A stretch of DNA of 61,124 nucleotides, filler included. It is 5 parts of 5 records of this genome, joined end to end, with 100 filler letters (N's around TTAATTAATTAA, not from the genome) between each part and the next. Parts side by side here need not be neighbours in the genome. Positions count along the whole stretch, not along the records: positions 22,075 to 46,519 come from SRR20825010_1059; 4 more parts are not named here. One strand, 5' to 3'. The position numbers and the translations under genes were made by a program. The notes below the pieces were generated by a model that saw only the letters and a program-made list of their open reading frames with translations, was not told the DNA's origin and searched no databases. Every line of letters starts with the position of its first letter. Within the stretch, counting starts at the first letter, position 1. Of the stretch, positions 17,231 to 46,519 are shown in pieces.

Positions 17231-17450
17231 CCGATTCCTTGGGCATGAAGGACCATTTCAAACCAGTCGGGAACCCGGCGCCACCACGCCCACGCAGGCC
17301 AGAGGCCTTCATTTCCTCGACGATCCACTCACGTCCCTTGCCGATGATGTCCTTGGTTCCGTCCCAATGGCCGCGCTTTTTCGCGCCATCAAGCGTCCGG
17401 TCATGCATGCCGTAGAGGTTGGTAAAGATCCGGTCCTGGTCCTGCAGCAT
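17231..17450 (-). CDS. nuoF: NADH-quinone oxidoreductase subunit F, N-terminal fragment
   Basis: [14 protein letters not shown]...[22 protein letters not shown]. Confidence 0.96.
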
Positions 17451-21974: not shown

Positions 21975-22074
21975 NNNNNNNNNNNNNNNNNNNNNNNNNN
22001 NNNNNNNNNNNNNNNNNNTTAATTAATTAANNNNNNNNNNNNNNNNNNNNNNNNNNNNNNNNNNNNNNNNNNNN
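21975..22074. other. Artificial contig linker
   Basis: N44-TTAATTAATTAA-N44. Confidence 0.98.
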
Positions 22075-25733: not shown

Positions 25734-27034
25734 TCTCAGCAATGATGAAACTTCCGTGCAAAGTTCGCCACCTCGTCGCCCATCATCCTCATATCAATTG
25801 GACGTTTTTTGATCAGGCGGTTGTCAGCGGGGCGAATTTTTTGACCGCGATTATCATTACGCGCTTTCTGGGGTTGGAGGCTTTTGGCGTTTTCTCGCTC
25901 GCTTGGCTGATCGTGCTATTTGCGCAGAGTTTGCAGCAGGCGTTCATCCTTTCACCAATGCTGAGCATTGGGCCGAAACAACTGCTTAAAGATACACCTG
26001 ACTATTATGGATCGCTCCTAATCTTGCAAGCAGGGTTTGCTCTTCTGTCATCCGGTCTGGCGGGCTGTCTGGCGTTATTTGCAGGTGCCTGGATCGGCCT
26101 GGGAGAAGCTGGTGCGACGTTGGCTTTTCCTATGGTACTCGCTGTAGCGATGACACAGATGCACGAGTTTTTCCGCCGCGCTTGCTTCGCGCGCGGTGCC
26201 CCCGCTACTGCTCTGCGGATAGATGTGCTCCGCTACGGAGGCCAGATTACGGCCCTGCTTATTGTTTCTCTTGAGGCGAGTAGCTCTGTTGAAATCACGC
26301 TGTTGATCGCAGCGACGAGCGCGTTTCTTGGGAGTATAGGCTTAATTTCAGAGTTTTCGAAGCTGGTACAGCGATCGGATCTGATCACGGAGACTTTTCT
26401 TCGCCATTGGGAAATGGCGAAATGGCTGCTGCCTTCAGCACTCATGCAATGGACGAGTGGTCATTTCTTCACCTTAGCGGCAGGAGTATTGCTTGGGTCT
26501 ACAGCGGTGGGCGCTCTACGGTCAGCGCAGAATCTGATGGGTTTCACCCGTGTCGGCTTTGAGGCGCTGAACAATTGGGCTCCTGTCCGGGCTGCACACA
26601 TTTATAAAGAGCACGGTACAACGGGCCTACATAGCTTCATCAGAAGACTCATGCTTTTTACAGGCGGTGGAACGCTTTTCGCCGTCCTCGCGCTGGCGCT
26701 ACCGGCCCAGTTCTGGCTGCACCTTATCTATGGAATGGAATTCGCGAAATATGGTTGGGTCGTCGCTGGCTATGGCGCTGTTTATCTTTTAATGGCACTT
26801 GGATTCCCGTTACGCTATGGGCTCACCGCGCGTGAAAAGACCCGACCGGTTTTTGTAGCTTATTTGGTTGCAACAATATTTTCGCTGACGGGTGTCTATC
26901 CACTGATCTCCCTGTTCGGTCTTGCGGGAGCAGTAGCAGGAACAATCACATCTACTGCCATTGTAGTGGGGGTATACGCTTGGTGTTCCATGGTGGGAGA
27001 ACAGGGTGATGTAAGTCACAGAAAGGAGCCATAG
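25730..27034 (+). CDS. Oligosaccharide flippase (Wzx/MATE-like)
   Basis: DQAVVSGANF...RFLGLEAFG; multiple TM helices; GLAGAVAG near C-terminus; start approximate. Confidence 0.82.
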   Translation: MISAMMKLPCKVRHLVAHHPHINWTFFDQAVVSGANFLTAIIITRFLGLEAFGVFSLAWLIVLFAQSLQQAFILSPMLSIGPKQLLKDTPDYYGSLLILQAGFALLSSGLAGCLALFAGAWIGLGEAGATLAFPMVLAVAMTQMHEFFRRACFARGAPATALRIDVLRYGGQITALLIVSLEASSSVEITLLIAATSAFLGSIGLISEFSKLVQRSDLITETFLRHWEMAKWLLPSALMQWTSGHFFTLAAGVLLGSTAVGALRSAQNLMGFTRVGFEALNNWAPVRAAHIYKEHGTTGLHSFIRRLMLFTGGGTLFAVLALALPAQFWLHLIYGMEFAKYGWVVAGYGAVYLLMALGFPLRYGLTAREKTRPVFVAYLVATIFSLTGVYPLISLFGLAGAVAGTITSTAIVVGVYAWCSMVGEQGDVSHRKEP

Positions 27035-29028: not shown

Positions 29029-30228
29029 ATGAGGATTTATTCTAGGGCACTTCGTTACCTGTTCTATATCCTTATCTTACCGATTTACTGGCTTGGCCAT
29101 CTCATTCCGCGAAACAATAAACTGTGGTTGTTCGGCAATGCAGAGGGGCGTTTTACAGACAACCCTCGCTATGTGATGGAATTCGTGCGGAAAAAACATC
29201 CTGATATTCGCGCTGTATGGATTTCGCTCAATAGGCAAACTTGTGAGGCTGTGCGTGAACTGGGGTTTGAGTGCCATCCCAAATGGAGCCTGTGGGGGAT
29301 ATGGCTGGGCCTGCGCGCTGGGGCGGGCTTTGGCGCAACTGGGCGCCTGAATCACAACCAAATGACATCTGGCGGAATGTATTTTGTCCAATTATGGCAT
29401 GGAATGCCCCTCAAACGATTGGATGGAAGAATTTTTTTTTGGTGGAAAGGATATGAACCCCGGATCAGAAAAACTCTTGATTGGATTCACGATCACATAT
29501 TTCCCTTTATCGCGCACAACAACTATGATCTCGTAACATCCTCCAGTCCGCTTTGTACCGAACGCTTGGCCGAGGCCTTTCGTATACCAGAGGATCGTTT
29601 CGCGGTCACCGGCTTTGCGCGCGCGGATGTTATTTTGAACAGCTCACCGCCACGCCCTGCCTGCCTCGAGACCATCTCTCCGGAAACACGGGTTATTCTA
29701 TATGCACCGACATTTCGAGAATGGCGGAACGACAAAAGCTGGCATATCACGGAGGAAATGACGGAATTTTCGGCAATGCTGGAACGCCATAATGCCGTGC
29801 TAGTTATCAAAGGACATGCCAACACGGAGTCCTTTATGGGAAACTCTCAAAATAATTCCCGGATTCATCATATCAATACAACAATAGACATAAATTATCT
29901 GTACCCTCACGTGGATGTCGTCGTCGCTGATTATTCCAGCGTTATGTTTGATTATTGCCTTCTGGGGCGCCCCATGGTGTTTTTCGCACCGGACCTAGAC
30001 AATTATCGAGCACAGTGGGGGCTTTATGAAGATTATGCATCTCTTAGCGAAGGACGCTATGCACGTAGCTGGGAAGAATTATGCGTGGAGCTAGATACGT
30101 GTCTTGGTGGCGAGAACGACTGGTACCGTGAACGCACACGGAGGCTGAATGCTCGTGCCAATGCCTTTAACGATCAGGGAAATTGCGCCCGTATCGTGTC
30201 TGCCGTACGCAAAAGGCTGCATGTGTGA
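29029..30228 (+). CDS. CDP-glycerol glycerophosphotransferase (TagF-like)
   Basis: FTDNPRY, QLWHGMPLK, ILYAPTFR, DYSSVMFDY, FFAPDL. Confidence 0.9.
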   Translation: MRIYSRALRYLFYILILPIYWLGHLIPRNNKLWLFGNAEGRFTDNPRYVMEFVRKKHPDIRAVWISLNRQTCEAVRELGFECHPKWSLWGIWLGLRAGAGFGATGRLNHNQMTSGGMYFVQLWHGMPLKRLDGRIFFWWKGYEPRIRKTLDWIHDHIFPFIAHNNYDLVTSSSPLCTERLAEAFRIPEDRFAVTGFARADVILNSSPPRPACLETISPETRVILYAPTFREWRNDKSWHITEEMTEFSAMLERHNAVLVIKGHANTESFMGNSQNNSRIHHINTTIDINYLYPHVDVVVADYSSVMFDYCLLGRPMVFFAPDLDNYRAQWGLYEDYASLSEGRYARSWEELCVELDTCLGGENDWYRERTRRLNARANAFNDQGNCARIVSAVRKRLHV

Positions 30229-31654
30229 TGGGAAGGATGGGGCAATATCTGAGAGAGATGAGGTTCGTGGCACAATGACAGCCCCATATATGCAAGAATA
30301 CCGTCCCCCCATTACACTAGAGCGACAAGAGAAGACCGTTTCCATCGCTGCCATTATGGCAATAATCGTCGTTTCCGGTACGATCATCGGCAGCGCTGGC
30401 TGGATGCAGATGTATTCCTTCGCCGCGCCAGCCCTTGCGGCTTTGGTCGGTTTGCTGTTCGGCGGCTTGCATCGTCGCGCTATTTTTATTGCCGCGCTAT
30501 TATTCGCCAATGCTCTTATCGGCCTTTTGTTGTCACAAGATGCCTTAATGATCAACGTGCTGGTCTGGACTCTAACGCATAGTTCTCTCCTTTTGCTGTT
30601 GGTAAATTTCCGGATGTCTGAGCTGATTCTATGCCGCGTTATACGTTTCTTATGCGTTATTCTTGTCATCGAATCGGTAATTGGTATCGGACAATTTCTT
30701 ATCATCAATGGTTTGGGATCTTTTTACCATATGGCAGCTGGTGATTATGTAACCGGTACGTTAGGGCGATCGGGTGCCGGAAATTCCATTTCATTCACTT
30801 TGTTGATAACCATTCTATTGTGCTACATCTGGAGCGCGAAAAAGTTCTTTCTGGGCGGTTGGGCGCAAATCCGCCTGATAGCGCTGGTTATCGTGCCTTT
30901 GACCATCATTTTGGCCTCGAATATCCACCAACTTATAGCAACAATCGCAGGAATTAGCCTGTTCGCCATTCATGACACCCGGGGAAAGCATCACGCCCGA
31001 CGGTTATGGGTCATGATTGTTTCAGCCATTGCGATCCTGTTCGGATGGCTGACGTTTTCCTTTCTTCAAGCGGATAATGTCGGGTATGCATCTCTTTTGG
31101 TCAACCGCACCCTCCAAACCATACAGGGTGATAGCCCAGTCGCCATTCGCAAAATTGTCGGGTTGAAGAATACCTTGGTTAGCCTGCCGGAAATGAATGC
31201 AGCGGCACCCGTGGTCGGGGTCGGGCCGGGACAGTATTCAAGCCGCGCAGCCTTAATCATGTCGGGAAGTTACCTTGATAGTGGGTTCCTGTTTGCGCCA
31301 CAATCGACTACATATACGCAAAACCTTATCACCCCCTTATGGAACAGATTTATTTATACACAAAACTATCAAAACGGAAACGCCAATATGCCGTTTTCGA
31401 CGGTTCAGAGCATTTATGCAGAATTTGGCATTCCCATATTTTTATTTGTTGTCATTGGAACCTATATGTATTTCAGGAAACGACTTTCCTTGAATACCCC
31501 AACGGCAAAAGGAGAGTTTCTTTCCTATAGCATCTTCCTGTTTGTCTGTTTCTTTGACAATTATCTGGAGTTCCCAAAAGCTGCCTCCATGGCAATGCTG
31601 CTCTGGCTTTTGGCAAGACAAACCTATCCTCATGCGCATTCTCATCCTTCATAA
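30221..31654 (+). CDS. Polytopic membrane protein, putative Wzy polymerase
   Basis: About 10 hydrophobic segments, GVGPGQY periplasmic loop, AEFGI; position inside polysaccharide operon; start uncertain. Confidence 0.6.
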   Translation: MCDGKDGAISERDEVRGTMTAPYMQEYRPPITLERQEKTVSIAAIMAIIVVSGTIIGSAGWMQMYSFAAPALAALVGLLFGGLHRRAIFIAALLFANALIGLLLSQDALMINVLVWTLTHSSLLLLLVNFRMSELILCRVIRFLCVILVIESVIGIGQFLIINGLGSFYHMAAGDYVTGTLGRSGAGNSISFTLLITILLCYIWSAKKFFLGGWAQIRLIALVIVPLTIILASNIHQLIATIAGISLFAIHDTRGKHHARRLWVMIVSAIAILFGWLTFSFLQADNVGYASLLVNRTLQTIQGDSPVAIRKIVGLKNTLVSLPEMNAAAPVVGVGPGQYSSRAALIMSGSYLDSGFLFAPQSTTYTQNLITPLWNRFIYTQNYQNGNANMPFSTVQSIYAEFGIPIFLFVVIGTYMYFRKRLSLNTPTAKGEFLSYSIFLFVCFFDNYLEFPKAASMAMLLWLLARQTYPHAHSHPS

Positions 31655-32822: not shown

Positions 32823-33043
32823 TTTTTGCCGAGAAGCGACCCAGGTTTTCTATCCGCTTTTTTTGGGCATTTATGAGCAATTATTTGGTCCCAGCAGGAA
32901 CAATGATTACCGATCCCCGGTCTCCGTAACATCGCTTGCACAGGGCAACCCACATCTGTCACAATAGTTGTCGGTAAGGTTGCACTGTCGATCTTATCCC
33001 CCTGAAACTTTTTAACAATAAAATTTGATCAGGTTCTTGTTAC

Positions 33044-34010
33044 ATGATTATTTCCGCAAGGAACGGTATAAACTTGGAGTATGCGAACAAGTCGGCCAGA
33101 TTTGTTTTTATCTTCTGGTACCCATCACAATTATTCTTGCTGGACTTTTTTTTGAGCAGGAATTTTCTCCCCCCTCCTCAATCTCCTGATCGGGAATATG
33201 GGTTTACCTGCGGTTTTCGAAGCCGATTTGACAGCTGGTATAAAAAATATAGATTATTCAATTTTGCCGAATTTTGGACTCATACTAAAATTTATGCCCT
33301 CTACACGATGAACTATGCACCAACGGTGTTCCTGTTCATGTGTATTACTGCTCCCAACACGCGAAGCTGGAGGGCGCAATTGTTATTCTTTGCCTTCTTC
33401 GTTGCCGCCGTTTTGTTAACTATCTTTATTGCCAAAACCCGCTCTACCATGATCGCTTTAACCATCTATATGACATCGTAGCTTATTTCACGATTCCAAG
33501 ATGAATACCCAAGCGCCATAGCAAGATTATGTTCTGGATATACGGTGTCTATCTGGTATGCTTTTTGCTTGTTATTTCTGGTATCCTGTAGAATTGTATG
33601 ATATGTTTTTTCAATTTCGTGTAGGCAGGTCTCGTGCTAGACTACCGTTATATACTTTGGGCTTTGAGATGGCTTTCGCTGAGCATCCCATACTTGATTT
33701 TAGCGTCAAGGACGCAGAAGGTGTAAGTGGATTTCATTCCACCTTTGTTAATTTATTCTATCGCACCAGCATTGTCGGATTTCCGTGCTGCACTTTGTTC
33801 CAGCTTTTAGTAGTTTGGGTACTTGCCAATTCTCGAGCAAGAAAATTCGGCTCCAGCATTGCGGCGGGTGTGTTTTCTATGCTGTTCATTCTTATTGTTG
33901 ATGACTTGGAAACCAATTCGCTTATCTGCTTCCTTTACTTCATCATGATCGCCCACGTCCCCCGCAGGTCGGAGGACGTGGGTGAGAACCAATGCACCTC
34001 TTTCCATTAG
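33044..34010 (+). pseudogene. Fragmented membrane-protein gene, probably an O-antigen ligase/polymerase remnant
   Basis: Two hydrophobic ORFs in different frames (33044-33481, 33558-34010); KTRSTMIAL and FHSTFVNLFY resemble ligase motifs; AT-rich. Confidence 0.5.
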
Positions 34011-35076: not shown

Positions 35077-36504
35077 TTAACGGAGCAATCTGTTTTCACC
35101 AGAAAAGCTCTGCCCCCATCCCAAAGCAACAAGAAACATGAAGCAGATCCCAGTCGCAGGCATCTGCACACTGAAATCCACAAAACTATGTGCAGCAACC
35201 GTCAGACAGGAAGCCACACCTGCAATCGGATAAATCTGGTCACGATGTCGAGAAACAAGACCAGATGCATTTTTTATGAAAACCACAACAAACATAATCA
35301 AAAACATCAACAGCGTGAAAAAACCGGCACCAAAAGCAAATTCCAGATAGCTGTTATGTGTCAAGTCCCACGTGGCCCAAGCGACATTCTGTTGTTTGAA
35401 TTGGCGAAATCCGGGTTCAAAGGCGCCATAGCCATAGCCTGTCACCGGTGACAATTTAATACCTTCGATTGTCCGGTCATAGACAGCAAAACGAATTGCC
35501 TGATCATTTTCAGTTTTTTCAAACCGTTGATCCAAAGTATCACCGCTAAACCAGTAACCGGCAATCAACAGGCAAACGATCCCTCCCACAGACCATCCGG
35601 CAATCTTGCGGGGCAGAATCCGCGCAACAAAAAGACCAATCAGAACAGCCAGCAGACCAATCATACCACTGGCAAAACCAGCTCGCGAATGCGTCAGCAT
35701 CAAAGCAGTCCCAGTGGTTACCCCCCCCAAGATCGGCAACCATGCCTTTTTCATCACCCCATCCATCATTCGCCGGAGCATTTCACGGCCTGTATTGCCC
35801 TTTCGCAAATCATGGGCAAGCACATTCACAAACATGACAACTGACGCAATGAGCCCCATTGCCGCATAGGTGGCATAACTGTTTCGGTTAATAAATGTGC
35901 TGGTCAAATCCCTTCGATAAGCACTTTTGTCATACCAAAGGATTTTCTCCCAACCGCCGAAAAACACGGCAAGGCCGTAAATCGCATAAACAGTCGAAAC
36001 AATAACGAAGAACTTCAACATGATTGCCGCATTCCCACGGTCCCGCCCGTACCGCGCGGCAAGCCAGAATACACCAGCATAGGCAAGCAGCACCATCAAG
36101 GCATCGCGCGTAAGTTCCGGATCAATCGAAACATATGCCGCCATATCTCGGCCAAGCTGCGCTGCCGCCTCGCCCCACATCGGATGGGCTGCGGCGGGTA
36201 AAATATCCGGGGTGGCCTGGATCACAATCCAGATGACAACGGGAATAAAAAGAACTGCCGGAATGGCAATACGTTTCATAAACCGGCTTTCGCCGCGAAC
36301 CGGGTCGGCAAATGCCGCAATGGCATCCAGCAAAACAAGAATGCCGACCCACAGGGAGAGAATGGACCATGCCCACGGCCGGTTCGAACCAAACGGCAAA
36401 GGCGCAATCGCAATCAGGGCAAGCAACCCGTAAAACACAAACCGGCGTACAAAATTCACGTCCCTGTTCCTTTCCCCATCCCTATACTCTTGTCGTATAT
36501 CCAT
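35077..36504 (-). CDS. O-antigen ligase family membrane protein
   Basis: PLPFGSNRPW, TFINRNSYA, THSRAG, GYGYGAF, HNSYLE, HSFVDFSVQMP. Confidence 0.88.
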   Translation of the reverse strand: MDIRQEYRDGERNRDVNFVRRFVFYGLLALIAIAPLPFGSNRPWAWSILSLWVGILVLLDAIAAFADPVRGESRFMKRIAIPAVLFIPVVIWIVIQATPDILPAAAHPMWGEAAAQLGRDMAAYVSIDPELTRDALMVLLAYAGVFWLAARYGRDRGNAAIMLKFFVIVSTVYAIYGLAVFFGGWEKILWYDKSAYRRDLTSTFINRNSYATYAAMGLIASVVMFVNVLAHDLRKGNTGREMLRRMMDGVMKKAWLPILGGVTTGTALMLTHSRAGFASGMIGLLAVLIGLFVARILPRKIAGWSVGGIVCLLIAGYWFSGDTLDQRFEKTENDQAIRFAVYDRTIEGIKLSPVTGYGYGAFEPGFRQFKQQNVAWATWDLTHNSYLEFAFGAGFFTLLMFLIMFVVVFIKNASGLVSRHRDQIYPIAGVASCLTVAAHSFVDFSVQMPATGICFMFLVALGWGQSFSGENRLLR

Positions 36505-36676
36505 GCTCTACCCATCTGATCAAGTCGGAATAAAGCGAGCCAGCCTGCAACCTTACAAATTCCGATCAAAATTCGATCAAATCGCGGTTGTGAATGGTTG
36601 CTGCCAGTCAACAAATTCCGTATAGCTTTCGCCTTCGTGCCGCATCATATACAAGCGGTTACGTTGGGGTCGAAAT

Positions 36677-38986
36677 ATGGGGGCCGTTTTGAACAGCACG
36701 ACCAAGGTCAGTTCCGTGATGGATAGCAGCGCGCGTGAACATAACAAATCACGCCTGAAAAGCCTGACCGATCGCATTTCTCAGCAAGGCAACAGTGACG
36801 AAATCGATCTGCAGGAACTGTTGCGCACATTGTGGCGGCGCAAATCTGTTATTTTTTCCGTCGTCGCCATCCTGACGGCACTCACAACCCTGATCGTGTT
36901 TCAGGTCGCCCCGCGTTATACCGCAACCACCAACGTTATTATCGATGGACGTAAATCCAACGTTGTCGATATCGAAAGCGTGATGACGGGCATGTCCGCC
37001 GAAATGGGCGCACTGCTAAGCGAGGTAGAGGTTATCCATTCCTCCTCGTTGATCCGGCGCGTGGTCGAAAAGCTGAAACTGGAGCAGGACCCGGAATTCA
37101 ATGTCGAGATTGCCAAAAAATCGTGGATGGCATCGCTGCTTGATCCCGAAAGCTATGTTCCGCGCGATGTTCTGGTATCACTTGGCCTTACGGAAAACGA
37201 GATTCTGCTAAGCGAGGACGAACTCACCGAACAAACGACCAACCGTGTCGTCAAAGCCGTTCAGGAACAGCTCGAAGTCGGCATCGTCGGCCGGTCCCAG
37301 GTCATTGCAATCAACTTCACCTCCACCAATGCGCGCAAGGCTTCGCTGATCGCGAACACCATCGCCGACCAGTATATCGTCGATCAGCTTGAAGCAAAGT
37401 TCGAGGCAACCCGCCGGGCAACATCATGGCTGAATGATCGCCTCGGTGATTTGCGCGAGCGCGTCGAAACAACCGAACGCGCAGTCGAGGATTACCGCGA
37501 GACAATTGCGGCAAGCTCAGGCCAAAGCAGTTCGATGACGCAACAACAGATATCGGAACTGAACTCGCAACTGATTCTTGCCCAGGCCGACCGGGCAGAA
37601 GCCCAGGCACGCCTGAATCAGGTGCAGCGCCTGCTCAGCAGCAGTTCGGATCTGGCATCGGCAGCCGAAGTGCTGAATTCGCAACTGATCCAGCGCCTGC
37701 GTGATCAGGAAGCCGAGGTACTGCGCAAGGTATCCGAACTTGAATCGCGTTATGGTGACAGACATCCGCAAATGATCAAGGCGCGCGCAGAACTCACCGA
37801 CCTGCGTGCCTCAATCGAGCGCGAGGTCCGTAAAATCGCACAAAGCCTGCGAAACGAAATGGGTGTTGCCGATGCGCGCGTCGCCACCCTGCGCCAAAGC
37901 CTTGGACAGCTCGAAACCAAAAACAGCTCCCAAAATCAGGCTGAAGTTCGCCTGCGCGAACTCGAACGCGAAGCAAATGCCAACCGCCTGCTTTATGAAA
38001 ACTTCCTGAACCGGTTCAAGGAAACGAACAACCAGGAAGATCTCCAGCAAGCAGATGCCCGCATCATTGCCCGCGCAGAAGTCCCGGTTGATCCATCTGC
38101 GCCAAAGAAAAAACTGATCATTGCGGTTGCGCTTGTCGGTTCAATGTTCCTTGGCGTTGTTCTGGTCTTTGTTCTCGAGCAGCTTGACAATACCTTCCGC
38201 GGTGCCGAACAGATCGAACAGATGACCGGTATACCCGCAATTGGCATGGTCCCGCTTTTAACCGGGACACTTTTGGGGCGGACCGATGTCGGACGATATC
38301 CGACACAAAAACCCGGATCTGCAACAACGGAATCCGTTCGCAGCCTCAGAACTTCATTAATGCTGTCAAATGTCGATGCACCGCCCAAGGTGGTTGGAAT
38401 TACCTCAACGGTCCCGTCCGAAGGAAAATCAACCCTCGCCGCATGGCTCGCACAGGTTGCCGCAACTTCCGGACAACGTGTCCTGCTCGTCGATTGCGAC
38501 TTGCGCCGCCCGACCGTGCATCGCACCTTTGGCGTCAGCAATGAAAACAGTATCGTCGAGCTTCTGGCAAATGAGTGCTCGCTGGATCAGGCAATCAAGA
38601 AAGATCCGGAAAGCGGCATTTATGTACTTCCGGCCAAGAACACGCAGGCAAATGCACTTGATCTTCTGTCTTCAAGCCACATGGCTGAAAACCTCAAGGC
38701 ACTTCGCGCGCATTTCGATTTCATCGTACTTGACGCGCCACCTATTCTTGCCGTTTCTGACGCAAAGGTCATCGGCCTGATGGCTGACAAGATGCTTTAC
38801 GTTGTAAAATGGGACGGCACTCCTCGTGCACTGGTACAATCCGGGTTAAAGGAAACGGTTGAAGCGGGTATCGACCTTGCCGGAACGGTTCTTAGCCAGG
38901 TGAATGTGAAAAAACATTCCAAATATGGCTATGGCGATTACGGATATTATTATGGTCGTTACAAAGACTATTATTCGAGCAAATAA
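36677..38986 (+). CDS. wzc: Polysaccharide co-polymerase / BY-kinase (Wzc/GumC/ExoP type)
   Basis: Wzz-like N-terminus, coiled coil, Walker A STVPSEGKST, DCDLRRP, C-terminal Tyr cluster YGYGDYGYYYGRYKDYY. Confidence 0.94.
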   Translation: MGAVLNSTTKVSSVMDSSAREHNKSRLKSLTDRISQQGNSDEIDLQELLRTLWRRKSVIFSVVAILTALTTLIVFQVAPRYTATTNVIIDGRKSNVVDIESVMTGMSAEMGALLSEVEVIHSSSLIRRVVEKLKLEQDPEFNVEIAKKSWMASLLDPESYVPRDVLVSLGLTENEILLSEDELTEQTTNRVVKAVQEQLEVGIVGRSQVIAINFTSTNARKASLIANTIADQYIVDQLEAKFEATRRATSWLNDRLGDLRERVETTERAVEDYRETIAASSGQSSSMTQQQISELNSQLILAQADRAEAQARLNQVQRLLSSSSDLASAAEVLNSQLIQRLRDQEAEVLRKVSELESRYGDRHPQMIKARAELTDLRASIEREVRKIAQSLRNEMGVADARVATLRQSLGQLETKNSSQNQAEVRLRELEREANANRLLYENFLNRFKETNNQEDLQQADARIIARAEVPVDPSAPKKKLIIAVALVGSMFLGVVLVFVLEQLDNTFRGAEQIEQMTGIPAIGMVPLLTGTLLGRTDVGRYPTQKPGSATTESVRSLRTSLMLSNVDAPPKVVGITSTVPSEGKSTLAAWLAQVAATSGQRVLLVDCDLRRPTVHRTFGVSNENSIVELLANECSLDQAIKKDPESGIYVLPAKNTQANALDLLSSSHMAENLKALRAHFDFIVLDAPPILAVSDAKVIGLMADKMLYVVKWDGTPRALVQSGLKETVEAGIDLAGTVLSQVNVKKHSKYGYGDYGYYYGRYKDYYSSK

Positions 38987-38989
38987 TCG

Positions 38990-39676
38990 ATGAAACGCTC
39001 CATTTTGCGCCGACTGCCTGCCTGTATCGGGCTGGTCGGCGCGGCTTTTCTCATCTGGCTTGCCGTTCCGCGTACTTTTGCCTCCATCATGCTCGCGGTT
39101 TCCAAACCGGCATACGAGCAGATCAATAATCCCGCCCTTCCATTGGCCGATATCGCGCAACTGAAAGACCGCTTGCTCCGCGTGATTGACTGGGTCGACG
39201 AACGTGAAGTGCAAACGCGTCTCGGTTATGTCGAACTCGCCCTTGCTGCGCGGGCAGAAAATGAAGCAGAACGGCAGAACCATCTTGCTCTGGCCGAAAC
39301 CGCCTTTGAAAATGCCATCGCCCATTCGCCGATGGATCCGTTTTCATGGGCACGGCTTTGCTACATCAGGCTGCAAACCGATGGTGCTGAGGACGGAACA
39401 GCAATGCAGGCGCTATCAACATCGCTTGTCACCGGCCCTTACGAAAGATCCCTTGCAATTTCACAGATCGAATATGCCGCAATCCTGTGGGATCAACTTT
39501 CCGAAGACGATCGGAAAACCATCGAGGAAAAAGTGCGCTCGATCGAAACACTTGAACGCCGCGATCTGATTGCGCTCGCAAAGCAAAATCCCAAAACGAT
39601 GACACTCGTCATACGTGCCATGGCGGATGGCGATATTGACCGCTTCACCCGTTTTATTGTCCAGCTGAATAAGTAA
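38990..39676 (+). CDS. Membrane-anchored TPR-like helical protein (VpsP-like by position and motif)
   Basis: N-terminal TM; AIAHSPMDPFSWARL, ALSTSLVTGPYE; immediately after wzc. Confidence 0.6.
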   Translation: MKRSILRRLPACIGLVGAAFLIWLAVPRTFASIMLAVSKPAYEQINNPALPLADIAQLKDRLLRVIDWVDEREVQTRLGYVELALAARAENEAERQNHLALAETAFENAIAHSPMDPFSWARLCYIRLQTDGAEDGTAMQALSTSLVTGPYERSLAISQIEYAAILWDQLSEDDRKTIEEKVRSIETLERRDLIALAKQNPKTMTLVIRAMADGDIDRFTRFIVQLNK

Positions 39677-40021
39677 TCTGCCACATAGCTGCTCGGACAA
39701 AGCCGCATACAGACGAAAGTTGTTGTAACCCGGCTAAACCTCTGTCCGAATCACCTCGCACTTTTGCAACTTTCCAAAATCAAAATCCAACCCTGAAGCG
39801 CCAAATACCAACAAACCTGCAACCATTTGACATGATTGAAGACTGAAAAAAGCCACACATGTGGCGCAAATAACGCATATACGCCTGTTTCCATCAGATT
39901 TTCGCCATAAACCGCAAAGAATGCTTTGCCGGTTATTTTGGAACCGGATAGTATCTAACCAAGTAGATAGGGTCGGTTCCTGTGTCGGGAACTGAATAAG
40001 GTTTTCGAAGGGAGATGTGCT

Positions 40022-40903
40022 ATGCGGCGCTTACAGAAACTGGCCGTTGCGACTGCGTTGGCTGGTAGTGTTTTCTTCGGCATGCAGACACTTGCTTATG
40101 CCCAGACAGGTGCAGCACTAACTGCCGAGATGGGTTCTCAGATTGACGGTGCTGCTGCCACCCCGGAAGCACTGAGCGCTATGGTTGCCAATCTGGTTCA
40201 GACCAACCCGACGCTTGCCGCTGCAATTGCCAAGCGCGCGACGCAAAGCAACCCGGCTGCTGCCGCACAGATCGCCCAGGCTATGGCACAGGCAGCCCCG
40301 CAGCAGGCAGCGGTTGTTGCTGCGGCTATTACTGAAATTGCACCGCAGGCAGCCTCACAGGTTACCGCAGCCGCTGCATCGGCTGCTCCGCAACAAGCCG
40401 CAACAATCGCCGTTGCAGTCGCGGCCCGGGCACCGGCAGCGGCGCCACAAATCGCCGCTGCGGCAACTCGCGCGGCACCGCAATCGGCCTTGCAGGTCGC
40501 AGCTGCCGTTTCGCGTGCAAACCCGCAAGCCGCCAGCCAGATCGCAGCCCAGGTTTCTGTCGCAGCGGCCCAGTCCGGCTCAACAGTTAACTCGGGCACA
40601 ATCGCGGCAACCGTCTCGTCGGCATCCCGTACCAGTGCAGCTGCGATTATTACTTCTGTCGCCGCAGCAACCGGAACCTCGGTCGCAGCCATCGCATCAC
40701 AGGCTGCCCAGGGTGCCGCAACAGCGGCCCAGGTCGTCGCATCAACCGATGTCACAGTACAAAACGGTTTGAACGCCACGGCGCAGGCAAGTACTCAGAC
40801 GGCGACCAGCACACAACAACAACAAACAGTGACAACAAGCACACCTGTTGTGGAGCAACCCGTTGTCCAGGAAAATCCGGCCCAGACCGGCAGCCCGACC
40901 TGA
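40022..40903 (+). CDS. Secreted Ala-rich protein with nine 15-aa repeats
   Basis: Signal peptide ending AYA-Q; GGGAG RBS; Pro every 15 residues; ends VVQENPAQTGSPT. Confidence 0.85.
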   Translation: MRRLQKLAVATALAGSVFFGMQTLAYAQTGAALTAEMGSQIDGAAATPEALSAMVANLVQTNPTLAAAIAKRATQSNPAAAAQIAQAMAQAAPQQAAVVAAAITEIAPQAASQVTAAAASAAPQQAATIAVAVAARAPAAAPQIAAAATRAAPQSALQVAAAVSRANPQAASQIAAQVSVAAAQSGSTVNSGTIAATVSSASRTSAAAIITSVAAATGTSVAAIASQAAQGAATAAQVVASTDVTVQNGLNATAQASTQTATSTQQQQTVTTSTPVVEQPVVQENPAQTGSPT

Positions 40904-40952
40904 TTTGACCGAAAAAACACGTTTCAGATATTGATTTGAAGGGGAATACAAA

Positions 40953-42215
40953 GTGAAGGTTCTCAAAGGGGGATTACTCGCAACCGTTGCCGCTGGTGCT
41001 TTGGTTGCGGCGCTGACATCTTCTGTCAGCGCGCAGGAAGCCGTCAATCCGGATCAGGGCGTTGCTCAGCGCACCGCCGAAGGCTACGAACCGGTAGGCG
41101 CTACCGTTGGTTCATTCCGTCTCTTGCCGAAGCTGGAAGTTGTCGAAGAATTCAACGACAACATCTTCAAGGAAGAAAATGACGAAACCGACGATATGAT
41201 CACCAAGGTTCAGCCGACCCTTAACCTGCGTTCTGACTGGAACAACCACGCACTGAACCTTGGTGCGGGTGCCGATTTCGGGTTCTATGCAGATTCAAGT
41301 GACGATGATTACGAAGATTACAATGCCAAGGTCGATGGCCGTTTTGACGCCAGCCAGGCGCTGACTTTCAATGGCCTGGGCAGCTTTGAACATCTCCATG
41401 AAGAACGCGGTGGCGACGATGTCGATGCCGATGCCGCCGATCCGGTTGAATATGACCGCCTGAAAGCTGAATTCGGTGGCCGGTTCAAGCCGAACCGTAT
41501 CAGCCTTGGCGCAACCGGTCGCGTTACCGATCTCGACTATGATGACAATGCCGAACTTGATGGTGGCACTACCAACAACGATGACCGTGACCGTCAGGTC
41601 CTTGAGGGTGAACTTCGCGCCGGTTACGAAATCCAGACCGGATACGAGGCATTCGTCAGAGGCATCTTCAATGATCGCGATTATGATTCTGATGTCGATG
41701 ACAACGGTTTTGACCGCGATTCCGATGGTTACAAGGCACAGGCAGGTATCGCCATTGACCTGGACCAGCTGATCCGTGCCGACCTTGGCGTTGGCTGGAT
41801 GGAACAGGACTATACCGATCCATCACTTCGCGATGCGGACGGTTATTCGGCGGATGCGACTGTTCGCTGGAACCTGACCGAACTGACCACGGTTCGTGGT
41901 ACTTTCGCCCGTGCGATCAACGAAACCACAACTGATGACGCATCTGCGATCATTGCTACCAGCTACGGCCTCGGTGTTGATCACGAATTCCTGCGTAATC
42001 TTGTTGCCACAGCCGATGCCAACTATCAGAACTCTGATTACGAAGGCATTTCACGTGAAGACGATCTCATGAGCTTCCGTCTCGGCCTTGATTACAAACT
42101 GAACCGCAATTTCTTTGCCGGTGTCAGCTACAAGTTTGAAGATCGTGACTCAAACGTCACGGATCAGAGCTACGACAACAATATTTTCGCCATCAAGATT
42201 GGCGCACAGTTCTGA
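40953..42215 (+). CDS. Outer-membrane beta-barrel protein (EPS-associated, BBP2/VpsM-like)
   Basis: Signal peptide, NDNIF, LRSDWNNH, alternating beta strands, C-terminal Phe (IKIGAQF). Confidence 0.88.
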   Translation: MKVLKGGLLATVAAGALVAALTSSVSAQEAVNPDQGVAQRTAEGYEPVGATVGSFRLLPKLEVVEEFNDNIFKEENDETDDMITKVQPTLNLRSDWNNHALNLGAGADFGFYADSSDDDYEDYNAKVDGRFDASQALTFNGLGSFEHLHEERGGDDVDADAADPVEYDRLKAEFGGRFKPNRISLGATGRVTDLDYDDNAELDGGTTNNDDRDRQVLEGELRAGYEIQTGYEAFVRGIFNDRDYDSDVDDNGFDRDSDGYKAQAGIAIDLDQLIRADLGVGWMEQDYTDPSLRDADGYSADATVRWNLTELTTVRGTFARAINETTTDDASAIIATSYGLGVDHEFLRNLVATADANYQNSDYEGISREDDLMSFRLGLDYKLNRNFFAGVSYKFEDRDSNVTDQSYDNNIFAIKIGAQF

Positions 42216-42238
42216 TCTGTACCAGAAAACATATCAAG

Positions 42239-42270
42239 AAAATCCCCCGACCATCCTCGGGGGATTTTTT
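42239..42270 (+). terminator. Rho-independent terminator
   Basis: AAAATCCCCCGA-CCATCC-TCGGGGGATTTTTT. Confidence 0.85.
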
Positions 42271-42416
42271 AATACAGCGGTATGTCTCGCCCCTGACATC
42301 ACAAGGGATCAGGTTTTATTCGCTGTTACTTCTTTAGATTTTTAGGTTACGGTAAATCATTTCAAACTTTACCAGCAAACTTGCCAAACGGCTTTGTGGG
42401 GCTCAGGGGAAATCAG

Positions 42417-43418
42417 ATGAAGACCTTATCTAAATTCATGGCAGTTGTTCTGCTTTCAGGCAGCCTGATTGGCGCCAATACAACTTCGGTATGGGCGCAG
42501 GCTGCGAGCGGTGCCGGAGGGACAGGAGTATCGTCGACTGGCAGCAGCGGCGGTGCCGCTGCGGGTGCTGGCGCGGCTGGTGGCGCGGCGGCCGGCGGGA
42601 TAACCGCCGGGGCACTTGCCGTGGGCGTTGCTGCCGCAGCGGCCATCGGTGTTGCGGTCGCTATCGCCAGCAACAGTAACAATCCTGGCGCCACCGACGG
42701 CAGTTATCTTACTCAGGATGAAAAAGATCTGATTGACAATGCAACGGATGCGGCATCGCTGGCAAATGCCATTCAGCAAGTCACACAGGGTCGGATGGAC
42801 GGCGCCAGCAGTGCGCAGAGCACGCGTGACAGCGCAATTGCCGAGGCCGTATCACGCGCGATCAAACGCAATCCGGCAGCAGCAGCAACAATTACAACCG
42901 TCGCGATCGGCGTTGCAAACGGTTCAAATGTAAGCATCGATGAACAGGGCAACATTGTTGTAACAGTTGTTGCCGCAGCAACGGCTTCTGCACCTGATCA
43001 GGCAGGTGCCGTAACAACCGCAGCCGCCTCGGTATCGCCTGCACTGGCTGCGGCCATTGCACAATCCGCTGCAACCGCGGCTCCGGATCGCGCAGCTGAT
43101 ATCACAACTGCCGCAATCCGGGTTAACCCGAGCCAGGCCGCAGCAATTGCAAAAGGTGCCGCAACGGGTGCCCCCACACAGGCAGCAGCCATCACCACGG
43201 CCGCGGTTGTCGCGGCACCAACGCAGTCGACCGCCATCACCAGCCAGGTTTCAAGCGTAAGTGGCGTTAATACAGCGGCTGTCCAGCAGGCCGCAACAAC
43301 CGCCCAAACCACCCAGACCGCTTCGAACAACACCAATGACGGTCAGGATCAGGATATCGGCAACACGATCACCGTTGTGACCGAAGAAAACCCAAGTCAG
43401 GATGCCAGCCCAAACTAA
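42417..43418 (+). CDS. Second secreted Ala/Thr-rich protein with 15-aa repeats
   Basis: Signal peptide ending VWA-Q; Gly/Ala hydrophobic stretch; 15-aa repeats; ends VVTEENPSQDASPN. Confidence 0.85.
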   Translation: MKTLSKFMAVVLLSGSLIGANTTSVWAQAASGAGGTGVSSTGSSGGAAAGAGAAGGAAAGGITAGALAVGVAAAAAIGVAVAIASNSNNPGATDGSYLTQDEKDLIDNATDAASLANAIQQVTQGRMDGASSAQSTRDSAIAEAVSRAIKRNPAAAATITTVAIGVANGSNVSIDEQGNIVVTVVAAATASAPDQAGAVTTAAASVSPALAAAIAQSAATAAPDRAADITTAAIRVNPSQAAAIAKGAATGAPTQAAAITTAAVVAAPTQSTAITSQVSSVSGVNTAAVQQAATTAQTTQTASNNTNDGQDQDIGNTITVVTEENPSQDASPN

Positions 43419-43513
43419 CCCGGGTTTTATCTGAGGCAATGCTGGCTCCTGCTCTCTATAATGCTATAATCCCTTCGGGTTCCGCCCGGAGGGATTTACG
43501 TTCTAAAGGTTTT

Positions 43514-44050
43514 ATGATGTTGCGTTCTGTCGGTTTTCTTCTGTTGGCTCTATGCGCCCTGCTGGTATCGCAGGATGTCTATGCACAACAGCCAGTCTAT
43601 ACTCTTGGTTCCGGCGATAAACTTCGTGTAACCGTATTTGGCGAAGAAGACCTGTCAGGCGAATTTGAGGTCAGCGGCAATGGCCAGATCTCTCTGCCGC
43701 TGATCGGAGAGGTCGACGCAGGCGGCAAAAACCTGCGCGCGCTTGCCGATGTGATCGAAGACAGGCTTCAGGAAGGTTACCTCAAGGACCCGAAAGTCAG
43801 CATTGATGTCCTGAACTATCGCCCCTTCTATATTCTGGGCGAGGTCAATGAACCAGGCAGCTATCCCTATGTCAGTGGCATGAGCGTGCTTAACGCGGTC
43901 GCTCTGGGGGGCGGCTTCACTTACCGTGCGGACAAGGAAGATATCCTGATTATCCGGGGGGGTGATGAAAGCCGCAAACCGGAAAAAGCCACACCCGAAA
44001 CCGTCGTTCTGCCGGGCGATATTGTTCGCGTTGAAGAACGGTTCTTCTGA
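43514..44050 (+). CDS. wza: Polysaccharide export protein (short OPX/Wza family)
   Basis: YTLGSGDKLRVTVFGE, GQISLPLIGEV, YLKDPKVSI, GEVNEPGSY, PGDIVRVEERFF. Confidence 0.93.
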   Translation: MMLRSVGFLLLALCALLVSQDVYAQQPVYTLGSGDKLRVTVFGEEDLSGEFEVSGNGQISLPLIGEVDAGGKNLRALADVIEDRLQEGYLKDPKVSIDVLNYRPFYILGEVNEPGSYPYVSGMSVLNAVALGGGFTYRADKEDILIIRGGDESRKPEKATPETVVLPGDIVRVEERFF

Positions 44051-44069
44051 TAAGGCACCTGATTTTCCC

Positions 44070-44096
44070 AAAAGCCCGGTCAGTACCGGGCTTTTT
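44070..44096. terminator. Bidirectional terminator between convergent genes
   Basis: AAAAGCCCGGT-CAGT-ACCGGGCTTTTT. Confidence 0.85.
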
Positions 44097-44871
44097 ACAT
44101 GATTGAATAATGTCTTCCCTGCAGCCGAAGGCATGTCAGCCGGCCACTATAATAGGCCCCCGTATCAATCCCTATGCGGTTTGGCCGAAATTCAGGTTCA
44201 TCCGTGATCGTATGACCATGCACGATAACCTTTTCGAAACCGCCGGTATGCGTCAGGAACGGCTCCCGTATCCATCGCAGGTCTTTGGGTAACTGTTTTT
44301 CCAAAGAAAGATCCGGATTTATACCCGCATGAACAAAGCAATAATCACCAATTGTCACGGCATCCTCAAGCTGCTGCAAAAAGACCAGATGCCCGCTCTC
44401 TTCCATCCGGGATCGAAGATCCTCGGCGACTTTTGCAAGCTTCCCGGCTGAAAGCACGCCCGCAGGCATACCCACCCCGTAACTCAGCAGCGTCTCTGCC
44501 CCCCCATAGGAAAGCCAGGACGTACCTTCTTCCGGACTATCAAGAAAACGCAGCAGAAATTCTTCGTGATTGCCGATGATTTTTGTCTGTCTGACACCGG
44601 CATTGTCCATCTCCCGGATCATATCAATCACTTTGCGGCTTTCGGGACCACGGTCAATATAATCGCCCAGATAAACAATTCTTTTCGCGATACCGCTATC
44701 GACCGGGTCGCGCTGAATTGCAACAAGACAATTCTCGAGAAGATCCGCCCGTCCATGAATATCGCCGATCGCGTACACGACAATATCATCCGGTATCGAT
44801 GTTTCTCCCAGAAAGACCGATTGCGACCTTTCGTCGCCCTTTTTCTTTCTGGCAAACCAGGAAAGCACCAT
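44095..44871 (-). CDS. Metallophosphoesterase (PPP / lambda-phosphatase-like)
   Basis: GDIHG, GDYIDRG, GNHE, HAG, HGHT, IDTG motifs. Confidence 0.92.
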   Translation of the reverse strand: MVLSWFARKKKGDERSQSVFLGETSIPDDIVVYAIGDIHGRADLLENCLVAIQRDPVDSGIAKRIVYLGDYIDRGPESRKVIDMIREMDNAGVRQTKIIGNHEEFLLRFLDSPEEGTSWLSYGGAETLLSYGVGMPAGVLSAGKLAKVAEDLRSRMEESGHLVFLQQLEDAVTIGDYCFVHAGINPDLSLEKQLPKDLRWIREPFLTHTGGFEKVIVHGHTITDEPEFRPNRIGIDTGAYYSGRLTCLRLQGRHYSIM

Positions 44872-44950
44872 TTCCTCCAAAAGATTTTGATATCGCCCGG
44901 CCGGATAAATCAGGCGTCCATATCGTGCCACGAACGCCTGAAAGTAAAGC

Positions 44951-45754
44951 CTATCTGCTTTCAACAAGGGTCATAGCGATCCAGACACTGTAAATCTTGC
45001 CATTCGGCCCTGTGTAAGAAAACTGTCCCCATCCGTCCTGCTCCTCAAGAAGCTTCAACGGCGTTGCCGACGGCATCTGAAACGCAATCTTGTAATCTGT
45101 ACCCGGCCCGATACGGGCATTAACCGTATCAGAAGTACTGTGCCAGATTTTTACCTCGTCATCGGGAAGGGGAACCGTATTCTCGCCTGCCACGCTTGCG
45201 ACTTCTGCCACGACGTCTGTATCATTTGGATTCTCGGACACCGTTTCAGATTCTTGCGGGTCAGTGGATATTTCGGATGCACCGACCTGATCATCGGCAG
45301 AAAATCCGGCGGCAACCTGTTCAACGGTTTCAACAGCCTCTCCCTCTGCCGTTTCGCGTTCGTTCAGGCCTTGCGCATCCCCCGAAATTCGCTCGATCAT
45401 ACGCCCGTTAATGAGCAACTCATCAAGTCGCCAGCAATAACTCTGCGGATTATCTTCACAAATATAGGTAACCCGCCCGTAAAATGGTGGCGATACATTT
45501 TCCTTGCCCAGCGTGCCGCGAAAATCCCACGCGAATTCGCCAAGCCGGTTGCCGGGTACCAGCATCGTCAAACCATATCCATGCACATCGAGGGTCGGCT
45601 TCACGGCTTCGATAATACCGGCATAAATATCAGCCGGACTTGGAGAAAACCGGCCTTCCTGCTGTTTTTCCAATTCCAGTCGATGCTGATAATAGCCCCA
45701 TCCCCCTGCCCCCGCGATGGCCAGAAGGATTAAAATGAATATCAGTTTCTTCAT
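44951..45754 (-). CDS. Membrane-anchored protein with C-terminal bacterial SH3 domain
   Basis: N-terminal TM; VNARIGPGTDY...DGWG...WIA. Confidence 0.78.
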   Translation of the reverse strand: MKKLIFILILLAIAGAGGWGYYQHRLELEKQQEGRFSPSPADIYAGIIEAVKPTLDVHGYGLTMLVPGNRLGEFAWDFRGTLGKENVSPPFYGRVTYICEDNPQSYCWRLDELLINGRMIERISGDAQGLNERETAEGEAVETVEQVAAGFSADDQVGASEISTDPQESETVSENPNDTDVVAEVASVAGENTVPLPDDEVKIWHSTSDTVNARIGPGTDYKIAFQMPSATPLKLLEEQDGWGQFSYTGPNGKIYSVWIAMTLVESR

Positions 45755-45825
45755 AAACTTGAACTCAACCCGCGTGCGCAATTACAACGTCAGTAACATC
45801 AAAATCTTCGTCGAGGCATGCGATG

Positions 45826-46257
45826 CTATTTCGAAAGTTCCTGCTTATGCGTTTCATATTTCGGGTGATCCGGGTTCAAAAACGCGACATCATTTTTGAT
45901 GTCATCAACACTGATGTTTCTGTCTTCGGCAATACGCAAAACCCAGTGAATTACCCGCCCGCGGCCTGTCCAGGTTTCTTCCGCGTTATCGGGGTTACGA
46001 TATTTCGGTACAACCTGCTGCTTTTCTGCAACTTCACGTTCCCCTTCTTTGGCAACGCGACTTTTCGATAATTCGGGATAAAGATCATAAATAGAAAGGC
46101 CTGCATCAAAAAGCTTCTGATCAATCTCTCCGCGCAGATCGGAAATAAACTGGGATTTACGATTTTCTACTTCTCGTTCCGCGTCTTCCATCAAACGCTT
46201 TAATTCGGTATATCCAAGCTTGGAAATATCAATCCCGCTGATCATAAAATTTTTCAC
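45826..46257 (-). CDS. H-NS family nucleoid-associated protein
   Basis: PKYRNPDNAEETWTGRGR DNA-binding motif; N-terminal coiled coil. Confidence 0.88.
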   Translation of the reverse strand: MKNFMISGIDISKLGYTELKRLMEDAEREVENRKSQFISDLRGEIDQKLFDAGLSIYDLYPELSKSRVAKEGEREVAEKQQVVPKYRNPDNAEETWTGRGRVIHWVLRIAEDRNISVDDIKNDVAFLNPDHPKYETHKQELSK

Positions 46258-46490
46258 CCGTCAGGTTTTATTGGTCAAAGCAAAATACTCCGGCCATTCA
46301 ATTTACAATTTATATCGAAATTCAGATAAAACTACAAACAGCTGGCTTATGAAATGCGCGCTAAATCAAAAATATTTCGGGAATGGAACTCTGGGCCGGT
46401 TATTCATTCCAAACCGAATTGAATAATCCGGCAGCAGCCTGTTAAAGCCACCACCGGATCATTTTAATCATCAGTCAATTCTGAAAGAGA

Positions 46491-46519
46491 TCACTTCATC
46501 GTCGGCATGACGAATTCGG
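46491..46519 (-). CDS. C-terminal fragment, probably methylmalonate-semialdehyde dehydrogenase
   Basis: Manual translation EFVMPTMK* resembles the MmsA/IolA C-terminus; only about 9 codons visible. Confidence 0.45.

Follow-up and report, generated by a model that had tools for sequence, protein, structure and literature searches.

A short C-terminal peptide marks a small family of alanine-rich, putatively exported proteins often encoded near polysaccharide export cassettes in the Kordiimonadaceae

The locus considered here, part of a window of 61,124 nucleotides (the whole stretch of DNA that was analysed), raises the question of what a short peptide shared by the C-termini of two dissimilar proteins, A and B, is for in the midst of genes that export an exopolysaccharide (EPS). 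A terminates in ...VVQENPAQTGSPT and B in ...VVTEENPSQDASPN, as the preliminary description of the locus had it; the stop codon follows directly after the motif in both, and neither protein has a hydrophobic C-terminal stretch that would amount to a transmembrane helix. That description presented the motif as a recognition signal for export, anchoring or glycosylation in a candidate protein display system, a proposal that gives way here to a narrower one, as the motif occurs on one protein family only, is restricted to one lineage (Kordiimonadaceae-type genomes, in addition to the contig of A and B) and is degenerate in places where gene and cassette persist. By sequence comparison, the tail identifies a single small family of proteins, so far undescribed, instead of addressing proteins in general. 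The features of the two proteins, with positions counted along the window, are the following.

Positions 40022-40903, plus strand: protein A, 293 amino acids (aa), with a signal peptide, nine 15-residue Pro-punctuated Ala-rich helices, a Thr/Gln spacer and the C-terminal tail.
Positions 40163-40567, plus strand: repeat array of A (residues 48-182), with a Pro spacing of exactly 15 residues.
Positions 40865-40900, plus strand: tail of A, VQENPAQTGSPT-COOH.
Positions 42381-43418, plus strand: protein B, 345 aa from 42381, with a likelier start at M13 (42417).
Positions 42600-42668, plus strand: hydrophobic segment of B, ITAGALAVGVAAAAAIGVAVAIA (23 residues, about 74-96).
Positions 43380-43415, plus strand: tail of B, TEENPSQDASPN-COOH.

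B is composed of a signal peptide, a Gly/Ser-rich stretch, the hydrophobic segment, a helical region, six repeats, a Thr/Gln/Asn spacer and a degenerate tail. Its repeats (residues 205-294) have the same 15-residue Pro spacing as those of A, and the unit common to both proteins is PxxAAxIAxAAxxxx. The statement that A and B differ over most of their length is thus correct insofar as BLASTP detects no significant similarity between them (E 1.0), and needs amending for the repeats that they have in common. An AlphaFold2 model of A, computed from a 31-sequence alignment, has a mean predicted local distance difference test score of 67, rising to about 77-83 over the repeats, and depicts a stack of 12-14-residue helices with breaks at the prolines, followed by a poorly ordered spacer and tail. 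A Foldseek search of this model against the PDB gave no match at E <= 0.001, the nearest entries being designed helical repeats and TPR-like proteins, and a search of the ESM Atlas with a canonical family member returned unnamed clusters only, with a best score of 0.88 (bar 0.9). The hydrophobic segment of B, which is rich in Gly, Ala and Val and has a Kyte-Doolittle mean of 2.46 over 19 residues, is a possible membrane anchor; it is kept in a colinear metagenome contig (L111) and in the distant homologues P0016, P0019 and P0021. Among the Thalassospira and other homologues (P0016, P0019 and P0021), conservation is higher in this segment than elsewhere in the protein.

Contig L111 matches window positions 35106-46519 at 95.2% DNA identity. 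Its version of A is 98.0% identical at the protein level, with the tail unchanged and two extra Gln in the spacer, and its version of B is 89.0% identical, with most differences near the N-terminus and the repeats unchanged; the outer-membrane barrel and the OPX protein encoded beside them reach 97.6% and 98.0%. A CAA/ACA repeat at 40812, which encodes the poly-Gln of the A spacer, varies by 3 or 6 bases between L111, RNA-library contigs and a DNA run. In one study, two metatranscriptome libraries yielded contigs that span A, its junction with the barrel, the barrel and B (90-99% identity), a weak sign of expression since such libraries can contain DNA; gaps in this cover, and runs with only small portions of the stretch, were given no weight.

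The family to which both proteins belong is represented by an alignment of 31 sequences (A, B and 29 further members, 185-345 aa). Its members have a common signal-peptide-like start (MRxAIxVAAFGxxxGAP...AxAQ), followed by an Ala-rich helical region, a Gln/Thr/Gly linker, often an Arg/Pro-rich stretch, and the tail. The tail consensus is VPVIVEPNPxQxGSPT-COOH, which in the alignment takes the form (V/I)P(V/I)(I/V)xEPNPxQxGSPT. The N, P, Q, S and P of the tail are invariant in all 31 aligned proteins. A and B carry the features of this family, namely a signal-peptide start, Ala-rich helices and N-P-x-Q-x-x-S-P-x at the exact C-terminus; NPAQTGSPT of A is letter-identical to the Kordiimonas members L008 and L011, and B, which is without the conserved Gly, is a degenerate copy. 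No Pfam or NCBIfam family is common to more than two of the 31 members. In G001, a genome labelled as a Kordiimonas metagenome-assembled genome (MAG) chromosome, four tandem genes (204-269 aa) end in ...PEPNPSQ(A/S)GSP(V/T) and lie about 6 kb from a cassette of Wzc, OPX, barrel and phosphatase genes; tandem copies number 1-4 per genome, with near-identical ends within a genome.

Codon usage indicates at which level the tail is constrained. In a table of 29 tails, the codons at the invariant residues vary, with three or four for Pro, four for the Gly, and for the Ser AGC in 27, TCG in 1 and TCT in 1. Since this variation at invariant residues is synonymous, the constraint acts on the protein and not on the DNA, and conservation of the tail as a DNA element is ruled out. 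The shared C-terminal peptide would accordingly read as a family-specific short linear motif, probably held by selection on the protein.

The reach of the tail was assessed at several depths. A profile built from four tails and searched in 45 Kordiimonadaceae genomes at E <= 1 finds matches in 24 of them (21 of the 32 within the genus), and the full-length matches begin with a signal-peptide-like N-terminus; one match, in G005, was set aside as fortuitous, lying within a 565-aa frame. The agreement between the ends of A and B exceeds chance. When the motif was written as a degenerate DNA pattern (E-P-N-P-x-Q-x-G-S-P-x-stop) and applied to one genome for each of 185,579 species, it matched 27 stretches, on 24 of which 32 open reading frames (ORFs) terminate with the motif. 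The contigs that carry these ORFs bear the labels Kordiimonas, Pseudokordiimonas, Kordiimonadaceae or Kordiimonadales or, for some MAGs, looser ones. On the other three stretches (two Streptomyces, one Stomatobaculum) the motif is not C-terminal. A 31-sequence tail profile searched against 1.84 billion representative proteins at E <= 0.001 gave 11 matches, ten of them family members of 108-256 aa matched at the last residue and the eleventh a repeat artefact. The expectation that hits to such a profile would lie at the C-terminus is therefore borne out for 10 of the 11 representatives and for 32 of the 32 motif ORFs. A word-based search with a 40-aa tail alignment recovered only four close Kordiimonas proteins, and 300 other alphaproteobacterial genomes yielded only four weak partial tail matches (E 0.02-0.08). 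Every credible tail match is an Ala-rich protein of 108-345 aa from the one family, and never another cargo.

The genes that surround A and B are arranged in the order first described, on which the ORF listing and the Pfam and NCBIfam family scans agree. They encode the following export components.

Positions 35077-36504, minus strand: Wzy_C-family polytopic membrane protein, 475 aa (PF04932, E 1.7e-17).
Positions 36677-38986, plus strand: Wzc-type polysaccharide co-polymerase (PCP) and tyrosine autokinase, 769 aa (TIGR01005, 443 bits, cut-off 411.7).
Positions 38990-39676, plus strand: 228-aa protein with an N-terminal hydrophobic anchor, weakly VpsP-like (NF038257, E 6.4e-7).
Positions 40953-42215, plus strand: outer-membrane beta-barrel of the BBP2_2 or Wzp-EpsX type, 420 aa (PF10082, E 2.5e-112).
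Positions 43439-44050, plus strand: class-3 (short) OPX protein, 203 aa (PF02563, E 2.6e-24; PF10531, E 1.6e-11).
Positions 44095-44967, minus strand: cytoplasmic calcineurin-like (PPP-type) phosphoesterase, Metallophos (PF00149, E 2.2e-10).

From its domain content, the export core is a known kind of system, consisting of a class-3 OPX protein, a BBP2_2 barrel and a Wzc kinase, and the likeness to the Vibrio VpsM/N/O type suggested earlier holds, with the short OPX protein, the separate BBP2_2 barrel and the Wzc kinase all present. The class-3 architecture of short OPX, separate barrel and PCP, a composite translocon with an 18-strand porin, is described for Myxococcus (PMC9603273, PMC12819527; see also the preprint by Schwabe et al., 10.1101/2022.04.04.486985). 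The window resembles WzaB-WzpB-WzcB and EpsY-EpsX-EpsV of M. xanthus and VpsN-VpsM-VpsO of Vibrio in its short OPX protein, BBP2_2-type barrel and Wzc-type kinase. The OPX protein contains PF02563, PF10531 and PF22461 only, that is, Poly_export and SLBB without a Wza_C or GfcC outer-membrane part; the barrel that accompanies a class-3 protein (Wzp/EpsX/PgaA-like) is found one gene away (PF10082), and the PCP-2a co-polymerase with tyrosine kinase is the window Wzc (TIGR01005), which has Wzz, GNVR and AAA_31 domains and a Tyr-rich C-terminus. A C-terminal Phe-Phe docks WzaB on WzpB in M. xanthus, according to a passage of PMC12819527. The window OPX protein ends in ...VEERFF, with RFF in the same position as this porin-docking Phe-Phe, and R(F/L)F ends all 14 aligned OPX proteins (window plus 13 Kordiimonadaceae), with the last Phe invariant; the endings of this set are PERFF, PERLF or EERFF. 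WzaB requires lipidation, and about 30% of class-3 OPX proteins are of the signal peptidase I type, as stated in part of PMC9603273. The window OPX protein differs from WzaB in this respect, since, read by eye, it has a type-I signal peptide with an AxA-type site (VYA-Q) and no lipobox, as do the 13 related OPX proteins. Further differences from the class-3 systems lie in the PPP-type phosphatase that accompanies the cassette of the window and of the Kordiimonadaceae, and in the alanine-rich exported proteins of the window locus; the passages at hand on class-3 systems name no such partner, and in PMC9603273 the word 'accessory' appears 0 times.

The remaining members of the locus are less readily assigned. 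The Wzy_C protein, with about nine hydrophobic segments and a gene divergent from wzc, may be an EPS polymerase or a ligase-like enzyme, and Pfam and NCBIfam scans gave no PglL-specific or WaaL-specific match and no NCBIfam family. The 228-aa protein had been labelled TPR-like, a label that the family scans do not bear out: no TPR or Sel1 Pfam match appears even at E <= 1 and no other Pfam family apart from noise; it also lies well below the curated cut-off of the VpsP family NF038257 (29.2 bits against 125). Homologues of it occur in 30 of the 45 Kordiimonadaceae genomes, several directly 3' of wzc, and the gene is absent or weak in several tail-degenerate species, which are probably one clade and for which the query is distant; with this distant query, its distribution over the 45 genomes does not track the tail.

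The tail genes are linked to this cassette by position. In a synteny set of 20 stretches reaching up to +/-10 kb around tail genes, the arrangements are these.

7 of 20 loci: tail gene directly beside the phosphatase gene (in one locus between phosphatase and wzc), on the same strand as the cassette.
6 of 20 loci: tail gene 5-7 kb from the phosphatase-barrel-OPX-Wzc cassette.
1 of 20 loci: cassette present, with a variant tail match adjoining.

Hence 13 of the 20 tail loci lie within 7 kb of a cassette. A phosphatase homologue adjoins the barrel in 11 of the 20 (tblastn), is found in 11 of 11 loci of a separate barrel-locus comparison and is present in the cassettes of most related genomes. 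The barrel itself was found in 33 of the 45 family genomes, a descriptive count since related genomes are not independent. Credible tail matches are confined to barrel-bearing genera, and the two tail-bearing genomes without a barrel match are 76% and 80% complete. The motif is thus both conserved and tied to EPS export, contrary to the possibilities, entertained at the outset, of a motif without conservation or without such a tie. The expected co-occurrence of tail-bearing proteins with the whole gene set stands for barrel, OPX, Wzc and phosphatase, which are near, and fails for the O-antigen-ligase-like enzyme: a homologue lies within 10 kb at only 2 of the 20 tail loci, and its distribution over the 45 genomes does not track the tail.

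Based on these observations, we tentatively favour, at somewhat short of even confidence, the reading in which A and B serve the export cassette as accessory proteins of the envelope, with a tail that is specific to the family and ties them to a partner where export takes place. By their sequences, they would represent an undescribed family associated with cassettes of class-3 OPX, Wzp-type porin and Wzc in the Alphaproteobacteria. We infer that both proteins leave the cytoplasm through Sec, given signal peptides read by eye, after which the tail would dock on an envelope partner at the export site and hold the protein as a helical stalk at or around the emerging polymer. The docking of OPX on the porin through Phe-Phe suggests, by analogy, a precedent for very short C-terminal docking in the same machine: this Phe-Phe and the A/B tail are both very short and sit at the exact C-terminus of an exported protein, although sequence and protein differ, and docking by the A/B tail, unlike that of WzaB, is only presumed.

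Several observations weigh against this reading. Of nine barrel-bearing genomes without a tail-profile match, seven keep the gene beside the phosphatase with a degenerate end (EPSQSQTGSGT twice, PEPEPEDSPG, NPGDDSDSPT, VDVGSPV, NEVGSQ and ENPDQSSPT); these genes are homologous, encode signal-peptide-bearing Ala-rich proteins and occupy the same place, and the remaining two genomes have no such gene beside the phosphatase. Because the cassette is kept where the tail is degenerate, the cassette works without a canonical tail. The tail of B (DASPN) becomes DASSN in L111, with Pro replaced by Ser at the second-to-last residue, and the hydrophobic segment of B could put its C-terminal part in the cytoplasm. 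Six of the 20 tail loci have no cassette in the fetched stretch (two of them cut by contig ends), in G018 the distance between tail genes and barrel exceeds 1 Mb, and G007 combines a tail gene adjoining the barrel with a second, distant one. No partner of the tail was identified. Matches of the family HMM to ORFs from outside Kordiimonas are two in number and are weak and biased (E 7e-8 with a bias of 46, and E 2.9e-5), and the Thalassospira homologues of B end otherwise, in QENPASPDTPET or similar. Finally, high sequence variability and 1-4 tandem copies suit a surface or matrix protein equally well.

The last point leads to the display system of the preliminary description, in which A and B would be the cargo and their tail a signal for export or anchoring. 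The barrel or the OPX protein would recognise this signal and take the proteins across the outer membrane or fix them there, as surface or matrix proteins that coat the polysaccharide. Conserved ends around a fast-evolving, low-charge middle of variable length, in one to four tandem copies, are typical of surface families; the A and B genes flank the barrel in the window, and in other bacteria such repeats follow FecR-type heads, in the manner of a stalk module. The confinement of the tail to one family with no other cargo, its narrow lineage and its decay in species that keep both gene and cassette nevertheless make display rather unlikely, as does the transport step that it demands, since we know of no precedent for protein transport through BBP2_2 or Wzp-type porins, although the literature searches were not aimed at this point. 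Another reading takes the association as devoid of functional coupling, with low-complexity exported proteins residing in a variable EPS island and tail identity reflecting recent descent or gene conversion. The near-identical ends of tandem copies within a genome, the youth and narrowness of the family and the decay of the tail in several species are consistent with it; we consider it improbable in view of the synonymous variation at invariant residues across two genera, including the Ser codon-family switch, of the place beside the cassette, which most of the genus has retained and which recurs in the window locus despite its different arrangement, and of the analogous Ala-rich genes that adjoin the barrel in other families.

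Pilins are known to be O-glycosylated at the C-terminus by O-oligosaccharyltransferases of the Wzy_C family (TfpO/PilO, TfpM), and the tail could likewise be a glycosylation tag, in which the Ser of ...GSP(T) or the Thr/Gln-rich spacer receives a lipid-linked EPS repeat unit from the Wzy_C-family enzyme. The resemblance lies in the brevity of the C-terminal tag, in the Ser or Thr at its end and in the presence of a Wzy_C-family gene nearby: such a gene is present at the locus, where two other polytopic membrane proteins could be flippase and polymerase, the Ser at -3 is invariant despite its codon-family switch, and Thr is last in 24 of 29 tails. However, A and B are not pilins, the enzyme shows the generic Wzy_C domain and no O-oligosaccharyltransferase-specific family, and the last tail residue can be V, F or N. 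Nor does the enzyme gene follow the tail, as the two tail loci with a homologue within 10 kb are L038 and L046, while among the 45 genomes homologues are present in the tail-degenerate G027, G036, G039, G012, G030 and G038 and were not found in the tail-bearing G024, G034 and G035 (80-100% complete). Glycosylation therefore appears highly improbable. Slightly less probable still is a role as periplasmic regulators, for which ExoR-type repeat proteins provide a model and in which A and B would bind and modulate a periplasmic sensor or the periplasmic domain of Wzc, the tail acting as a tag for degradation or binding. Small exported alpha-repeat proteins are indeed encoded at the head of a phosphatase-barrel-OPX-Wzc cassette, and a response regulator gene lies upstream (22023-22607), but no Sel1 or TPR family matches, no sensor kinase adjoins the genes in the loci examined, and a specific regulator would not usually have low-complexity surfaces that evolve very fast or a variable copy number.

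The comparison with PEP-CTERM sorting deserves separate mention, as the preliminary description had excluded it. This exclusion is right for the window, where the motif is followed by neither a transmembrane helix nor a basic cluster and no exosortase is found among the ORFs scanned; A and B stop 7-9 residues after NP, and TIGR02595 (PEP-CTERM) matched none of the 31 family members. Some likeness is apparent: in both cases a genetic link connects EPS loci with families of proteins that have a conserved signal at the C-terminus, the window barrel passes TIGR03016 (92 bits, cut-off 90.85), the OPX and Wzc proteins resemble XrtA-system versions, and the V-x-E-P-N-P of the tail loosely recalls V-P-E-P. 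XrtA is present in all five Kordiimonadaceae genomes tested, and in G001 its locus (L144, G001:C1:3936000-3955999) is separate and complete, with its own OPX protein, chain-length protein, kinase and barrel. Of classical PEP-CTERM proteins, G006 (Pseudokordiimonas) has 25, whereas four Kordiimonas genomes have 0-1 each, these being weak. A PEP-CTERM end hidden behind read-through was also considered and rejected: the frames close with any of the three stop codons (TAA, TAG or TGA), beyond which the sequence lacks conservation and gives no hydrophobic reading.

Beyond the tail-bearing family, a wider class of Ala-rich genes accompanies such barrels. A crude filter for small exported Ala-rich ORFs (Ala >18% and a hydrophobic N-terminus) was applied to 20 barrel loci from alphaproteobacteria of other families. 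At six of them, listed here, it picked out such an ORF adjoining the barrel, OPX, phosphatase or Wzc gene.

Loci with an adjoining Ala-rich ORF: L118, L120, L122, L123, L125 and L134.

The 15-residue Pro spacing is clear in two of these six ORFs, and their C-termini are polar and unlike each other. Thalassospira hypothetical proteins with 51-61% identity to B are its only named relatives, and an A-like homologue ends in EDTQSPN. FecR-headed (PF04773) metagenome proteins (P0020, P0025-P0027) contain the same 15-residue Pro-punctuated Ala-rich repeats as A and B, from which they differ by the PF04773 head and by a long Pro-rich (Pro/Thr-rich) end (...SVSPST, ...PNPSNA, ...PNPSSD) without the NPxQxGSPT tail.

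The upstream region contains genes expected of a Wzx/Wzy-type EPS locus, in addition to the following features.

Upstream EPS genes: priming sugar transferase, WecG-type, GT4, glycerophosphotransferase, Asn-synthase-like amidotransferase and GalE.
Positions 22023-22607: response regulator gene, upstream in the window.
Positions 25655-27034 and 30149-31654: two polytopic membrane proteins without a family match.

Between the GT4 gene and galE, at 32900-34010, an AT-richer stretch contains fragments of hydrophobic ORFs that lie in different frames (33029-33481 and 33522-34010) and resemble the remains of a gene for a polytopic membrane protein, possibly a former polymerase or ligase. At the other end of the locus, a 276-aa protein (44951-45781, minus strand) has an anchor at its N-terminus, an acidic middle part of low complexity and, at its C-terminus, a bacterial SH3 domain, the match to which is weak and below the Pfam cut-offs; its gene overlaps the phosphatase start by 17 bases. 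A promoter and terminator scan of 36400-45100 found sites no more numerous than in shuffled sequence.

With respect to the host, an N spacer with TTAATTAATTAA at 17131-17231 joins two contigs of the window, and the locus lies on the second. Window bases 1-17130 are 100% identical to G001, whereas the second contig shows only about 64-76% DNA identity to G001 and to every other genome searched. In an order-level DNA search, its best match was 76% over one 320-base piece, with long matches at 71-73%; the best identity of the window barrel was 39% at the order level and 44% at the class level, and that of a housekeeping-type ORF of the second contig was 60% at the class level. The unpublished genomes G085 and G285 were part of these two class-level searches and of the tail search in 300 other alphaproteobacterial genomes, and contribute to those tallies only. 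An exact-match look-up of seven window proteins found no identical entry in the collection. The host of A and B is therefore not G001-like, given the second contig at only about 64-76% identity and the barrel at no more than 44%, and the assembly, with two contigs of differing affinity, may mix organisms.

Placed in a broader frame, the Pro-punctuated Ala-rich repeat proteins might constitute an unrecognised fourth component of class-3 OPX/porin/PCP translocons across the Alphaproteobacteria, with FecR-headed forms elsewhere. A short peptide at the C-terminus would tether this component at the pore, where it would either shape polymer exit or be displayed on the cell surface with the polymer; we regard this generalisation as unlikely, and offer it as a conjecture. 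The motif itself is no new general sorting signal. If the conjecture were true, these proteins would form a protein arm of the EPS export machine. Class 3 is reported in part of the Myxococcus literature as the most common OPX class, for which the crossing of the gap to the porin by the polymer is only now being worked out (PMC12819527). A recurrent exported partner beside the porin would be a new and testable component of this machine, equipped in one lineage with a sharply conserved 16-residue end-piece. Should A, B and their relatives instead be matrix or surface proteins, the tail would provide a compact handle on how proteins stay with a secreted polysaccharide.

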